A stretch of 64,000 nt of DNA, taken from positions 146,548 to 210,547 of the forward strand of contig PFWT01000009.1 in NCBI GenBank assembly GCA_002791275.1, written 5' to 3'. Each line of letters opens with the position of its first letter. The stretch's first letter is position 1. Source of the DNA: Candidatus Uhrbacteria bacterium CG_4_9_14_3_um_filter_41_35 (lineage in GTDB: Bacteria; Patescibacteriota; Patescibacteriia; UBA9934). The notes beneath the pieces were generated by a model. That model was not told the origin of the DNA, made no database searches, and saw nothing but the letters and a program-made list of their open reading frames with translations. The translations under genes and the position numbers were made by a program. Positions 4,075-57,180 of the stretch are shown here, one piece after another.

Positions 4075-4133
4075 ATAGTGTTAAGAGTTTAGCGCAATAA
4101 GGGTGATCAATGACAAAAAGAAACCACAAACCC

Positions 4134-4454
4134 CGTCATTCTGAGGTGAACGTGGATCACACCGAAGAATCTAGTGATAAATTACTAAGTAAATGTCGGT
4201 TAAGCACAGAGCGAAGGAGATCCTTCAGCATGAATCAGCACCCGCTTCAGGATGACGGTATGAGTGAAATGCGGTTTATTTAAGGCGACAGGAAATATAA
4301 ATTACACAATCACACAAACCTCGTCATTCTGAGCCTAGCGTGAATCACGGCGAAGAATCTCAGTGTTGAATTACAGCGTAAACAAGTTTCTGTTTTGTAA
4401 AGAGCGAAGGAGATCCTTTAGCGTAATCTGGCGCTCGCTTCAGGATGACGGTAT
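4134..4454. repeat. intergenic palindromic repeat cluster 1 (A'-B'-A'-B', about 190-nt tandem period)
   Basis: The 38-nt unit cgtcattctgag..ccgaagaatct occurs twice and the 50-nt unit cgaaggagatcc..cttcaggatgacggtat occurs twice. Units are reverse-complement to those in clusters 2 and 3. Confidence 0.8.
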
Positions 4455-4502
4455 AGGTGTGGGTCGAAATAATACAGGTATATTTTAGATCATATTAAAA
4501 CA

Positions 4503-46095: not shown

Positions 46096-46149
46096 TTTTT
46101 TGCTTATTGTAGCTTATAGTCTAGCTTCTACTTAGTAATCAGGCAATGG

Positions 46150-46469
46150 GATTCTTCGGTGTGGTCCACGTTAACCTCAGAATGACGGGGTTTGTAATTT
46201 TCTCCGAGGTGCCAAGCGCCAGGCTCAGAATGATGGTTTAGTTTTTGACGATACGGTTTCGTTATTCTGACGCTTATCATTCATACTCCACACTCATACC
46301 GTCATCCTGAAGCGAGCGCCAGGTTACGCTGAAGGATCTCCTTCGTTTAGCCGAACCAACATTTGCTTAGTGATCCAGTAATAAGATTCTTCGCCGTGGT
46401 TCACGCCAGGCTCAGAATGACAGGGCGATTAGATTCTTCGGTGTGATCCACGTTCACCTCAAAATGACC
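46150..46469. repeat. intergenic palindromic repeat cluster 2 (between uvrA and uvrC)
   Basis: A units at 46150-46187, 46385-46422 and 46432-46469 (plus a partial copy around 46207-46236). B unit at 46298-46345. Confidence 0.8.
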
Positions 46470-46580
46470 GTTTAGTAGTTATTGTTTAATTTAGTATTTT
46501 CCACTACCTCTAGCTCCGAAGCTTAACATCGTAATATCTTCAGTTTCAAATAACCTAAGGCAATACCCAAAACCTAAACA

Positions 46581-52851: not shown

Positions 52852-53796
52852 TTATTGTTCCGATATTATAACATCTGGCGAGGCCGAACGCCAAGCTAAA
52901 GAATTTTCATCAAAATTTGGCGGTCGATTAAATTTTCTGGTCAAGACTGCCATTTGCATTGGTGGAACGTTGATCTTCGACATATCAACACTACCAAGGC
53001 CAGCTTCCGAGGCCATCACTAAATAACCCACTGTTGTTGGGTCGACACCCATCAGTGTCGACGCCACAGCGTCAACTGCCACTGCATCGAACCCAGCCAG
53101 CACCACTCCCATGTTCACAGCTGAACCGTTTGTTGATTCATTGCCTTCCATAGCCTGAATACCGTCGATAATTGAAACATCTGCCGGTAGTTGATTGAAT
53201 ATCTCCGCAATTGATTTGTGATGTGCCCAAGCCCCTTCTTCATTTAGCCACGGCCACCTCGCCCACACTCTACCCATTGCCGAAATACGTGACGGTACAA
53301 TCCAGGTGCCGAGCGCCCAGTTTTTTATGCCAAGCGAAACCGAAGTTTCCCGATTAACCTTCATATTACTAACAGAGATCCGAAAATCTACCTCACTTGC
53401 AAGTTTCGATCTACGAATTGAGTTCCTTGAGCCGTCGCGCCTCACAGAATAACCATCCACGAATGCGTCATCGTTTAGATCAACCAGCTCAACTTTTTGA
53501 TACTCCTTCAGTAACTGCTCATAACCTAAATTCCGAAAAGCTGATTTTGTTCCAAAATAGGCTGCATCACCCACAAAGATTTTTGCCGGCGAATGCTCTT
53601 GAATAACCTCGATCACCGAGCGAACCGCATCCACGTGAGTTGAGGCGAGCTGATTCTCAGGGTGAACCAAATTTGGTTTTATCAAAATAGTACTAGCTGA
53701 TTTCACCCGTTCAATAAACTGGTCACCTAAACCCTCGACTGCCCTTCGGATCAGTTCCTTTCGGCTCCCATCTGTTTCTAGTATCACGTCAATCAT
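52852..53796 (-). CDS. DUF362-domain protein
   Basis: ILIKPNLV...VGDAAYFG pattern. Confidence 0.45.
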   Translation of the reverse strand: MIDVILETDGSRKELIRRAVEGLGDQFIERVKSASTILIKPNLVHPENQLASTHVDAVRSVIEVIQEHSPAKIFVGDAAYFGTKSAFRNLGYEQLLKEYQKVELVDLNDDAFVDGYSVRRDGSRNSIRRSKLASEVDFRISVSNMKVNRETSVSLGIKNWALGTWIVPSRISAMGRVWARWPWLNEEGAWAHHKSIAEIFNQLPADVSIIDGIQAMEGNESTNGSAVNMGVVLAGFDAVAVDAVASTLMGVDPTTVGYLVMASEAGLGSVDMSKINVPPMQMAVLTRKFNRPPNFDENSLAWRSASPDVIISEQ

Positions 53797-53901: not shown

Positions 53902-54804
53902 TTAGCCCCGCTTCAGATAAACCTTCACAAAACTACTTTTGAGTTCGCCTGCCTTGGCTGAAAGTTCCTCAGTTTTACCAGCTTTTGCCAAATCTAGAAG
54001 CGCATTGAGATTCTGTCTGATTGCCTGAATTTCAGTATCGTTCGCTTCCGTTTCAACCGCTACCAGTTTTTCGCTCACCATTTGGTATGCCTCGATTATG
54101 CCCTGTGAGTTTTGAGCATCTGCCTCCGCAATAATCACTTCCATAGCGTCATGAAAATCAACCAAAGTTACCGCAAGAAGCGAAAAGTTATTACGCTTCA
54201 AGATATCTTGAAAGATCTGTCGAACTGATTCTAGGCCAATATGAGCACTTGGTAAATCGCCAGTTTTAATAGTTTCGTTAAGTTCTGCCACTTTTACAGA
54301 AACTGTCTCAAGATCGGCGTTAAACTGTCCGTCTCCTAAAATGGCATAGGGGCGGTAGTTTTTATACTTCTTTTGAAAAACTGCAAGCTCCGAAACTAGG
54401 TTGTCATAATTTTCGATTGATTCAGCTCGTTTGTTCTGACCGGTATTAAATAAAGTCTGTTTGTAGAAGTTATTCATTACATTAAAATCTTCAATAAAGA
54501 ATTTCTTAGTAAAGAAATTGCTCGCGTAACCACCGCCAACTAATATCAAGATTATCATCGCGGCAAATAAACCAAGTGTTACTTTTGAAACTTCCACGGG
54601 TTTTTTACAAGTATTTACGCCAACTAGTCGGTAAAGTGCGCAAAAACCAGAACAAGCGGTTCCAAACATCACAACCGCAAGCACATAAAATAAAACCGAC
54701 AGCGCTCCACCGACCCAGAAAAGAGCCGTTAAGAACAATCCTGCCGCTAGCACAACCCGCGCCATTCGATCATAGACTCCTTCGTTTGCTTTCACACCAA
54801 ACAT
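53902..54804 (-). CDS. membrane protein with N-terminal DUF2892 (YgaP-like) domain
   Basis: RMARVVLAAGLFLTAL...GFCALYRLVGVNTC, followed by TM helices and an alpha-helical domain. Confidence 0.45.
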   Translation of the reverse strand: MFGVKANEGVYDRMARVVLAAGLFLTALFWVGGALSVLFYVLAVVMFGTACSGFCALYRLVGVNTCKKPVEVSKVTLGLFAAMIILILVGGGYASNFFTKKFFIEDFNVMNNFYKQTLFNTGQNKRAESIENYDNLVSELAVFQKKYKNYRPYAILGDGQFNADLETVSVKVAELNETIKTGDLPSAHIGLESVRQIFQDILKRNNFSLLAVTLVDFHDAMEVIIAEADAQNSQGIIEAYQMVSEKLVAVETEANDTEIQAIRQNLNALLDLAKAGKTEELSAKAGELKSSFVKVYLKRG

Positions 54805-54822
54805 ATAGATGAATATTAATAA

Positions 54823-55260
54823 TTATTTTATTAAAAACTTACCGCCAATTTCGAGCATCAGATCCGAACACCGCTGAATATCTTCTTTCTTTTGCGTTGG
54901 CATAACTTCTTCCAGTAAAAGTTCCAACCTTTCCAGAGCCTCTTCATATTTTTCTCGGCCACTGTCTGATATTTGTACTAGTCGCACCCGAGCGTCGGTT
55001 TCAGATGGTCCGGTGCTAACTAAACCAATTTTTTCCATCGGCACCAGCATTCTGGTAATTCCCGAAGCGGTTACCGCGATCTGATCCGCAAGATCGATTC
55101 GCCGGAGTTCGTGATTTTTAGGTTGATTTAAATAATGAAGAATTAAAAACTCATTAAAGCCAATCCCGTTCCCCATCCCGAAATTAAACTTCTTCGCCAC
55201 TATTGCCTCTATTTTTGAAAGATTGAGTAGAAATTGTACTGATTCGCTAATATTTATCAT
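54823..55260 (-). CDS. MarR-family transcriptional regulator
   Basis: Winged-helix region LADQIAVTASGITRMLVPMEKIGLV. 145 aa. Confidence 0.75.
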   Translation of the reverse strand: MINISESVQFLLNLSKIEAIVAKKFNFGMGNGIGFNEFLILHYLNQPKNHELRRIDLADQIAVTASGITRMLVPMEKIGLVSTGPSETDARVRLVQISDSGREKYEEALERLELLLEEVMPTQKKEDIQRCSDLMLEIGGKFLIK

Positions 55261-55325
55261 AAATATATACTTGATTACTCAAGTATATCACAAGTAGTTT
55301 TTTGTACCATACCGATTGTTCTTAT

Positions 55326-55556
55326 TCAAGATATCCCCCAGCCTGAATTTTCCAGAATTCTTGGTAAAGTGAGTCCTTTTTTATAAGTTCTTCGTGCATT
55401 CCAGAATCTACAATTTTTCCTTTATTCATTACCAAAAAACAATAAATATTTCCACTCCTTTTTCATTAAAGGCCATACTGTCGCCCAAACTTTTTTGTAA
55501 TCAATCTTCTCCCCCGTTTTCTTTTTCATATGTCCGTTAATTTTTAATATCGTCAT
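55326..55556 (-). pseudogene. ABC exporter ATPase/permease remnant with large internal deletion
   Basis: An N-terminal fragment MTILKINGHMKKKTGEKIDYKKVWATVWPLMKKEWKYLLF (ABC exporter N-terminus) runs into a stop. A C-terminal fragment GKIVDSGMHEELIKKGLTLPRILENSGWGIS (ABC ATPase C-terminus) continues 1 nt out of frame. About 500 codons between them are missing. Confidence 0.55.
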
Positions 55557-55658
55557 ATCTTATCACTATTTCATTCAATGTAAAACGATGCAGGATTAGC
55601 CAAAAGATCTCATATATTTGTGATGACTCAAAACTTATATACGAAATAATTCAGAGTA

Positions 55659-56090
55659 AGATTCCTCGCCGTGATTCACGGTAGGCTCTGAATGACGAGG
55701 TAATGAGATTCTTCGGTGTGATTCGCGTTAGGCTCTGAATTACGGTTTTGCTTGTCGTATTATAATAAATCGTCCCACACTCATACCGTCATCCTGAAGC
55801 TAGCGCCAGATTACGCTGAAGGATCTCCTTCGCCCTTTACTAAACAGAAACCTGTTTACGCTGTGATTCAACACTGAGATTCTTCGGTTTAATCCACGTT
55901 CACCTCAGAATGACAGGGTTTGTGATTTTTTATGCTGTTATTTTGATTAGGTCCCTTACCCATTCCGTCATCATGAAGCTGGCGACGACTCACGCTGAAG
56001 GATCTCCTTCGTATTGTGCTGAACCGACATTTACCTGGTGATTCAGTAATGAGATTCTTCGGTGTGATTCGCGTTCACCTCAGAATGACG
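55659..56090. repeat. intergenic palindromic repeat cluster 3
   Basis: A units at 55659-55696, 55706-55743, 55878-55915 and 56053-56090. B units at 55784-55831 and 55963-56011. Confidence 0.8.
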
Positions 56091-56210
56091 ATTTAATTTA
56101 TTATACATTCCTCCTCACAAAACTCCTCCACTTTAATACATAAACTCTCTACTGAACCAGTATATAAAAAACAGCTCAAACAAAAAACCACCAATGGCTT
56201 GGTGGTTTTT

Positions 56211-56284
56211 TGGTTCCCGGACAGGGATTCGAACCCCGATTACCTGTTCCAGAAACAGGTGTCCTGCCTTTAGACGATCCAGGA
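56211..56284 (-). tRNA. tRNA-Gln (anticodon CUG)
   Basis: Folds by hand into a cloverleaf: 7-bp acceptor stem with U1:A72, D-loop GG, anticodon loop UUCUGGA, T-loop TTCGAAT, and an encoded CCA. Confidence 0.85.
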
Positions 56285-56450
56285 GTGAGTGAACACAGTA
56301 TTAAAAGTCTACTTATAAATACTATTGAGCGAACGAGTTGGACACCGGAGGTATCCAGGAGTGATATTGGAAATTAACACCTAATCGTGCGAAGAGAATA
56401 TCTAATTTGTGAGTGTTTGTCAATACTTTGTTTAATTGTTTTGTAGATAA

Positions 56451-56482
56451 CCAAAAAGTACGGATAGTATCCGTACTTTTTG
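56451..56482. terminator. bidirectional intrinsic terminator
   Basis: gtacgga-tagt-atccgtac hairpin flanked by A-run and T-run. Confidence 0.6.
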
Positions 56483-56487
56483 GTAAG

Positions 56488-57180
56488 TTATTCGTTTTCT
56501 TTGTGTTTTTCGCGTAAGTCTTGATAAAGATGGTCGAGTGCCTTTGAAGCGTGTTCTTTTCCGCCAAGTCCGAACGCTAATCCACCAGCTAGCGCTAGCA
56601 TTGCAATGAAACCGGTGAACAGTGTCTGAATTAGAGCCTCGGCAATTCCGAGTTGAACGAGCGACGCCATACCACTGAACACGATAATTGCCCACTTACC
56701 AATTCCAGATAAAAAGTTCGCACTCTTCATTTGCGCCACTTCCATTGCCGACCGAATAACGTCCTGGACAAAGTTTCCAAGCAGAAGTCCAACCAGCAAA
56801 ATCACGATCGCGATCAAAACATTTGGAATATAGGTAATTACTTGGCCCAAGAACACCGTGATCTGTGTCCACTGCATCGCGTCCGCTGCCACAATGAGGA
56901 ACATTACAATCACGAACCACTTCACTAGGAAGCCAAGCACTTCGCCAATATCGAGTTTAACTCCAGCTTTGTGAAAAATTTCTTTTACCTCTAAACGTTC
57001 AAGTAAATCATCAATCTTGAACATATGAACCAAGCGTACCACCGCTTTTTTAAGCAAGTTTGAAGCAACTATTCCGACTATAATTACCGCAGTCGCAAAA
57101 GCGAACTTTGGCAAAAAGAGCATAATCGTCGCCCATAAATCCACAAACGCAGTTCGTAAGACCTCTACTGAATCTGGCAT
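56488..57180 (-). CDS. small membrane protein with conserved TM-helix repeats (MscS-like N-terminal TM_helix family)
   Basis: Multiple TM helices and charged loops. Overlapping minus-strand ORFs 56322..56567, 56432..56695 and 56696..56920 and plus-strand ORF 56731..56928 are treated as spurious. Confidence 0.5.
   Translation of the reverse strand: MPDSVEVLRTAFVDLWATIMLFLPKFAFATAVIIVGIVASNLLKKAVVRLVHMFKIDDLLERLEVKEIFHKAGVKLDIGEVLGFLVKWFVIVMFLIVAADAMQWTQITVFLGQVITYIPNVLIAIVILLVGLLLGNFVQDVIRSAMEVAQMKSANFLSGIGKWAIIVFSGMASLVQLGIAEALIQTLFTGFIAMLALAGGLAFGLGGKEHASKALDHLYQDLREKHKENE

Follow-up and report, generated by a model that had tools for sequence, protein, structure and literature searches.

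A pseudogene of an ABCB-type exporter beside a cluster of palindromic repeats in Candidatus Uhrbacteria

The window analysed here, a stretch of 64,000 nucleotides from a contig of a groundwater Candidatus Uhrbacteria genome, with a G+C content of 41%, contains two short open reading frames that resemble the opposite ends of an ABC exporter. Both lie on the minus strand between a tRNA-Gln gene and a gene for a MarR-family regulator, and the spacer upstream of them holds a cluster of palindromic repeat units, termed A and B. The features of the locus, together with the positions of all the repeat clusters, are as follows.

52852-53796, minus strand: DUF362 protein gene (Pfam), which directly follows the intact ABC gene in relatives
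53902-54804, minus strand: gene for a YgaP-like/DUF4363 membrane protein of 300 aa (Pfam)
54823-55260, minus strand: MarR-family regulator gene (Pfam MarR), 61 bp downstream of the ABC stop codon
55322-55435, minus strand: C-terminal remnant in the +1 frame, LVMNKGKIVDSGMHEELIKKDSLYQEFWKIQAGGYLE followed by TAA, corresponding to residues ~559-594 of the orthologues
55422-55556, minus strand: N-terminal remnant ORF, 44 codons and a stop (sequence, alignments)
55431-55439, minus strand: deletion junction, inside TTTTTTGGT (three-frame translation, alignment ends)
55557-55584, minus strand: promoter-like site TTTACA-16-TAAGAT (TG-extended; consensus scan), which abuts the ATG at 55556
55659-56097, plus strand: A/B cluster of 4 A and 2 B units, in the spacer that separates tRNA-Gln from the ABC start codon
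55659-55704, 55706-55751, 55877-55922 and 56052-56097, plus strand: A units of this cluster (profile searches)
55772-55848 and 55951-56027, plus strand: B units of this cluster (profile searches)
56211-56284, minus strand: tRNA-Gln(CTG) (Rfam tRNA, 56.4 bits), which relatives likewise have upstream of the ABC gene
4129-4463 (minus strand), 46133-46474 (plus strand) and 55659-56097 (plus strand): the three A/B clusters found by A/B profile searches of the window

The first of the two frames (ORF 55556..55422) begins at the ATG at 55556, reads MTILKINGHMKKKTGEKIDYKKVWATVWPLMKKEWKYLLFFGNE and ends at a TAA (55424-55422). Homology covers Met10 (55529) to Phe41 (55434), the equivalent of residues 1-32 in intact orthologues of ~594 aa; past the junction, there are three unrelated codons (GNE) and then the TAA. 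The original prediction had an ABC exporter N-terminus running into a stop codon, and three-frame translation shows the N-terminal string quoted there to be exact. The second frame, displaced by +1 nt, is an ORF at 55435..55322 that reads (L/M)VMNKGKIVDSGMHEELIKKDSLYQEFWKIQAGGYLE and ends at a TAA at 55324-55322. For this end, the earlier string is correct up to '...HEELIKK', after which it slipped out of frame at a run of A (GLTLPRILENSGWGIS and a stop); the true continuation after the run is DSLYQEFWKIQAGGYLE and a stop, which resembles a typical ABC C-terminus more closely than the earlier string does, and the corrected C-terminal reading as a whole is GKIVDSGMHEELIKKDSLYQEFWKIQAGGYLE. This remnant comprises the last strand of the NBD and the C-terminal helix, downstream of the H-loop. 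From start codon to stop codon, the remnant measures 235 nt, in keeping with the earlier estimate that a gene of ~600 codons had collapsed to ~230 nt, on which the homology of the ends, the synteny and the assemblies agree.

Homology to exporters is found in both stubs at the corresponding positions of the protein (residues 1-32 and ~559-594). In an exhaustive HMMER search of 1.84 billion representative proteins with the stubs fused into a query of 78 aa, the best match besides both ORFs themselves was a protein of 593 aa (P0124), which aligned in two stretches (E 1.3e-9), the N stub to its residues 8-32 and the C stub to its residues 557-592. The family of this protein (~594 aa, ABC_membrane and ABC_tran) is common in Candidatus Uhrbacteria; a word-indexed protein search with the fused stubs returned a single candidate, a partial NBD (P0001). 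In ~25 members of the family, residues 10-41 of the N stub align to protein residues 1-32, that is, from the second Met (MKKKTGEK...). The highest BLOSUM62 score is 84, whereas shuffled controls average 39 and do not exceed 51. The check named with the original prediction, tblastn of ABC exporters against the region, was carried out with nine intact family members, and both stubs were matched: the C-terminus at 55435-55328 in frame -1 (E 2e-12 to 2e-8) and the N-terminus at 55529-55434 in frame -3 (E 1e-4 to 5e-2). For the interior, exporter residues 33-558, the same nine queries gave no match at the locus.

Searched separately, the C stub has hits to 126 distinct PDB sequences (E<=1), and all the matches listed are ABCB-type exporters aligned at their extreme C-terminus, the best E-values being 7e-7 (Ste6) and 1.4e-6 (2ghi). 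The N stub alone has no match in Pfam or in a search of PDB sequences, which is expected because exporter N-termini are poorly conserved, and Pfam finds no domain in either stub since both are too short. The match of the N fragment is modest alone and is convincing only in combination with its position in the protein, the concordant family members and the synteny described below. A search of genome contigs for loci related to P0124 returned only generic exporters of 30-37% identity (from Clostridia, Verrucomicrobia and others) and was uninformative, and a possible paralogue in the window, an ORF of 608 aa beside repeat locus 1, was rejected as GlmS. The other ABC similarity that tblastn detects in the window is limited to the generic ATPase fold of UvrA, and there is no intact ABC exporter elsewhere within the 64-kb window.

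Between the two stubs, ~526 codons are missing (codons ~33-558, ~1.58 kb), and 69 of the ~594 codons are left, or 12% of the gene. The lost part contains all six transmembrane helices as well as Walker A, the Q-loop, the signature, Walker B, the D-loop and the H-loop. The six helices of ABC_membrane (PF00664) are absent, the ~32 N-terminal residues breaking off where the first helix starts. The hallmarks of an NBD (PF00005; Walker A, LSGGQ, Walker B and the H-loop) are likewise absent, given that LVMNKG, the first residues of the C stub, lie beyond the H-loop as placed by 'AHRLST..D.ILV' in P0161 and P0124. All helices and ATPase motifs are gone, and therefore nothing functional can remain; with 88% of the codons missing, a +1 frame break and assembly-level support, the lesion is real and disabling.

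The comparison with an intact orthologue, which had been proposed as a further check, was possible in two related contigs, both of which carry an intact ABC gene at the same syntenic position. In one of them (L092), the order is tRNA-Gln(CTG), a 300-bp spacer, the ABC gene (606 aa), DUF362, a 157-aa protein, UvrB and UvrA. In the other (L093), it is a 700-aa protein, an HTH protein, a TsaB-like protein, an MS-channel, tRNA-Gln, two extra genes, the ABC gene (597 aa), DUF362, a 157-aa protein, UvrB and UvrA. Order and orientation are the same as in the window, the flanking proteins are 41-76% identical between the window and these contigs, and the DUF362 protein of the window is 61% and 46% identical to those of L092 and L093, respectively. 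The synteny therefore identifies the stubs as the positional orthologue of one intact gene. The upstream extras of L093 (119 aa, RimK-like) and genes of 178 aa and 133 aa have left no remnants at this locus.

The tRNA-Gln gene is followed by a hairpin and a T-run (inverted repeat I1, 56178-56215), a terminator hairpin. Its anticodon is CTG in the window (56211-56284) and in L092 (1457-1530) and TTG in L093 (4504-4577). The first 12 nt of the region at its 5′ end (ATCCAGGAGTGA on the plus strand, 56277-56288) recur 76 nt upstream at 56353-56364, which may be a chance match or the scar of a tRNA-associated rearrangement.

On the other side of the stubs, the gene order of the window departs from that of the relatives, given that neither marR nor the ygaP-like gene has a counterpart at this position in L092 or L093. 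Judged by this comparison, the two genes (53902-55260) are a lineage-specific insertion of ~1.4 kb between the ABC gene and DUF362. The closest homologues of MarR outside CPR come from Pedobacter and Dyadobacter (43-45% identity), a likeness that hints at horizontal acquisition. MarR homologues (~55% identity) were also tried as a route to intact orthologues of the exporter, which failed, as they do not lie beside ABC exporters and have no synteny with the locus. Directly upstream of the marR start (55260), there is a perfect 10-nt palindrome, ATATACTTGA-TTAC-TCAAGTATAT (55265-55288), which looks like a putative MarR autoregulatory operator.

Promoter-like -10 hexamers, which are consensus matches only, abut the ATG of both the ABC remnant (55557-55584) and marR (55262-55291) on the minus strand. 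There is no Shine-Dalgarno sequence between these hexamers and the two ATGs, and the transcripts of both may be leaderless. The site at 55557-55584 is possibly the promoter of the dead gene, still in place; the consensus scan is weak, since it found 7 sites where 4.6 were expected.

How the interior was lost can be approached from the junction itself, which reads TTA TTG TTT TTT GGT AAT G (55445-55427, minus strand). In the frame of the N stub, this is ..TTG TTT TTT GGT (LFFG), with homology through LLFF(G); in the frame of the C stub, it is ..(T)TT TTG GTA ATG ((F)LVM), with homology from (F/I)LVM, and the two homologies overlap on TTTTGG(T) (55437-55431). From this relationship of the frames, it follows that the deleted length, ~1.58 kb, is 2 mod 3. 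In the relatives, the 5′ site is CTT TTG TTT TTC GGG (LLFFG, L093) and the 3′ site ATT TTG GTC ATG (ILVM, L094), and T-rich, GG-containing sequence is present at both orthologous break sites. It is thus plausible that a direct microhomology of ~6-7 nt, TTTTGG[T], existed at both ancestral sites, and a deletion between such sites would yield the observed phase (2 mod 3). The microhomology is deduced from relatives rather than observed, because the databases searched contain no close relative with an intact gene, the best being ~50-65% identical in the stubs.

The following sequence of events would account for these observations. The ancestor would have carried a single-copy ABCB-type half-transporter of ~594 codons, a six-helix TMD followed by an NBD, between tRNA-Gln and DUF362. 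One deletion of ~1.58 kb, in what we infer to have been a single event, would have removed codons ~33-558, most likely by slipped or illegitimate recombination between the T-rich microhomologies at the sites coding for LFFG and ILVM. Codon ~32 is now joined to codon ~559 out of frame, such that the N stub stops after three more codons and the 37 C-terminal codons are left without a proper start. The A/B repeats would be bystanders, members of a dispersed MITE-like family that settled in the spacer upstream.

Neither stub appears to have decayed further. The mean identity of the C stub to the family is 0.64, as compared with 0.69 between intact members (5-95% range 0.58-0.83), and the N stub scores 51.7, as compared with 53.2 for intact members, the values for the stubs being from one clonal population; no stops have been acquired within either stub. 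Since neither stub shows extra decay, the deletion seems to be young compared with the divergence of these species.

The original prediction considered the deletion possibly repeat-mediated and placed the cluster immediately downstream of the gene. The cluster does adjoin the remnant and, with 6 units, is the largest of the three in the window, but it lies upstream of the minus-strand start codon, between the terminator hairpin of tRNA-Gln and the promoter-like site. It consists of two lone A units and two composite inverted-repeat elements of ~135-160 nt, each made of B, a spacer and A. In these, a B arm (CCGTCATCCTGAAGC..GCTGAAGGATCTCCTTCG), a spacer of ~45 nt that exists in two variants and an A arm (GAGATTCTTCGGTG..CACCTCAGAATGACGG) fold as a long hairpin (z -2.0 and -2.8), A being a weak reverse-complement match to B. 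The whole window contains 9 strong copies of A and 5 of B, which are confined to the three intergenic clusters, and the composite unit recurs at no fewer than 33 further metagenome loci (L098-L130, with 121 A and 68 B profile hits). Just one of the composite-unit loci overlaps the window, and contig names suggest that they come from the same JGI sample series. These are the properties of a MITE-like family, that is, a short non-coding unit with terminal inverted repeats and many dispersed copies. Inspection of the flanks by eye revealed no clear target-site duplication, Rfam finds a tRNA and no family for the A/B repeats in 55200-56500, and a literature search for MITEs in Patescibacteria returned nothing relevant. 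A different inverted-repeat element (CGTAGGGACGTTGCCTGCAACGTCC ... GGACGTTGCAGGCAACGTCCCTACG, ~80 bp apart) lies in the spacer between tRNA-Gln and the ABC gene of L092 (~1575-1705), and the spacer seems prone, in more than one lineage, to take up small palindromic elements.

For the repeats to have mediated the deletion, an A/B element inside the gene would have recombined with the upstream cluster, or transposition machinery would have caused an adjacent deletion. The abundance and dispersal of the family, which point to its mobility in this lineage, speak for such a mechanism, as does the position of the largest cluster of the window ~100 bp upstream of the start codon. However, with thresholds as loose as E<=1, nhmmer detects neither whole nor partial copies of A or B in 55300-55650, and the deletion broke the gene at two points within its coding sequence, the closest repeat being ~220 bp away. 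Moreover, recombination with the upstream cluster would remove the promoter and the N-terminus, yet both were kept, and in 64 kb with three clusters, it is not very unlikely that a given gene has one next to it. Thus, as no A/B repeat is present at or near the junction (55431-55439), where the sequence looks like a short T-rich microhomology instead, this part of the original prediction is unsupported, and we consider a repeat-mediated origin improbable.

We regard it as more improbable still that the remnant has been kept because it is used, be it as a peptide of 35-44 aa encoded by the N stub, as a slippage fusion of ~76 aa, or as the leader or promoter of the downstream marR operon. A use of this kind would be compatible with the retention of the promoter-like site found by the consensus scan and with two stubs that are stop-free and undecayed, and a +1 slip of tRNA-Phe on TTT TTT G (the T6 run) would join both frames. 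The lack of decay is explained equally well by a recent event, however, and the remnant contains no catalytic or membrane-spanning element, while marR has a promoter-like site of its own and an operator-like palindrome. In-frame mini-ORFs of the same architecture, N-terminus plus C-terminus, on two unrelated contigs (P0137 and P0150) could also be cited in favour of a use, but the query that retrieved them selects for this very junction, they lie on short single-sample contigs, and their similarity is limited to generic ABC termini.

In P0150 (94 aa; L096, 1082-1366) and P0137 (58 aa; L097, 272-448), an exporter N-terminus is in frame with the last ~37 residues of an exporter, and the strings read there are ..LVMHKGKIIETGTHKELI.. 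and ..IVMEKGAIVEEGTHSELL... The two are probably independent collapsed exporters, which surfaced because the query selects for this junction. There is also a very slight chance that collapse to an N stub plus the last ~37 codons is a recurrent, non-random outcome, the products of which, as in-frame peptides or a +1-slippage fusion, are retained for a function; if this were true, there could be, for instance, a retained peptide that mimics the C-terminal helix of the NBD.

The reality of the deletion is supported by five assemblies from different samples and pipelines (JGI 3300009004, 3300008085 and 3300025005; ENA ERZ27293400 and ERZ17986938), which are 100% identical to the window over 55250-56300, and by the recording of the remnant ORFs on 23 and 34 contigs, the longest contig being 325 kb. 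Thus, the deletion is not an assembly artefact. The adjacent MarR has accessions from three NCBI genome records, and a protein identical to the MarR of the window is annotated in CG_4-series genomes of Candidatus Uhrbacteria. As the assemblies appear to come from one clonal population, the deletion can be taken as fixed in the sampled population only. It is almost inconceivable that an assembly or binning artefact hides an intact gene in this organism: although metagenome assemblies are able to collapse repeats and one contig (L005) ends near this locus, the junction has the same sequence in JGI and ENA assemblies that stem from different samples and different assemblers, the stub ORFs are on 23-34 contigs, one of 325 kb, there is no repeat at the junction that could cause a collapse, and tblastn finds the missing 1.58 kb nowhere else in the window.

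We therefore hold with high confidence that this segment is a non-functional pseudogene of an ABCB-type exporter, formed by one recent deletion of ~1.58 kb, with the A/B repeats as bystanders. The homology of the ends, the positional orthology, the missing interior, the frame relationship and the reproducibility across assemblies are direct observations.

Deletion-driven gene loss is the standard route of bacterial genome reduction, and the original prediction described the locus as a snapshot of this process. The description is apt only in a loose sense: tRNA-Gln and DUF362 are 2.4 kb apart in the window as compared with 2.1 kb in L092, because the loss of 1.58 kb has been offset by the gain of ~0.45 kb of repeats and of the ~1.4-kb marR/ygaP-like insertion. 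Pseudogenes make up ~5-10% of genes in groundwater CPR genomes (PMC11188291). The locus provides a clean, datable case in which a single large deletion removes a gene in a CPR genome, and the gains next door to the loss call for caution in reading single pseudogenes as net genome reduction. For annotation, the two small ORFs (35-44 aa) called by gene finders should be merged as one pseudogene feature, and this Uhrbacteria population should be scored as being without the exporter that its relatives keep beside tRNA-Gln. Beyond annotation, the significance of the locus is small.

Among known systems, the lost protein is closest to the ABCB-type exporters of the type IV fold, such as Sav1866, the glucan exporter NdvA/ChvA, MsbA and TM287/288. 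Intact orthologues (P0184 and P0200) share ABC_membrane and ABC_tran with them and give full-length matches to Sav1866 (2hyd, E 4e-98) and NdvA (7znu, E 2e-88), the nearest homologues of known structure, and the C stub of the window matches the last ~35 residues of such exporters. Unlike them, the remnant of the window amounts to 12% of a gene, with no transmembrane domain or ATPase motif. The original prediction spoke of MsbA-like exporters, which is appropriate as a resemblance but not as an equivalog identity, given that the intact orthologues are under every NCBIfam cut-off; for instance, the intact family scores 448 bits against a cut-off of 733 for the glucan exporter and 378 against 602 for MsbA. 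As no NCBIfam equivalog cut-off is reached, the label “MsbA” in some records should be read as resemblance only.

With MITE or REP-type elements, the A/B units share their length (~135-160 nt), inverted-repeat arms, long hairpins, intergenic position and occurrence at many loci. They differ from such elements in having no Rfam match and no target-site duplication that is clear by eye, and they are neighbours of the pseudogene rather than part of it. The pseudogene itself belongs with the deletion-formed pseudogenes of bacteria, in which a functional gene has been disabled by an internal deletion and a frameshift and the remnant has not yet been erased. A deletional bias in bacteria was reportedly described by Mira, Ochman and Moran in 2001, and the turnover of bacterial pseudogenes is said to have been treated by Kuo and Ochman in 2010, a work that PMC11188291 lists as well. 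Nothing essential sets the present case apart from such pseudogenes, its particular features being the size of the loss (88%) and the clean retention of both termini. It is an ordinary pseudogene, real and well supported, and a new instance of a well-known kind.
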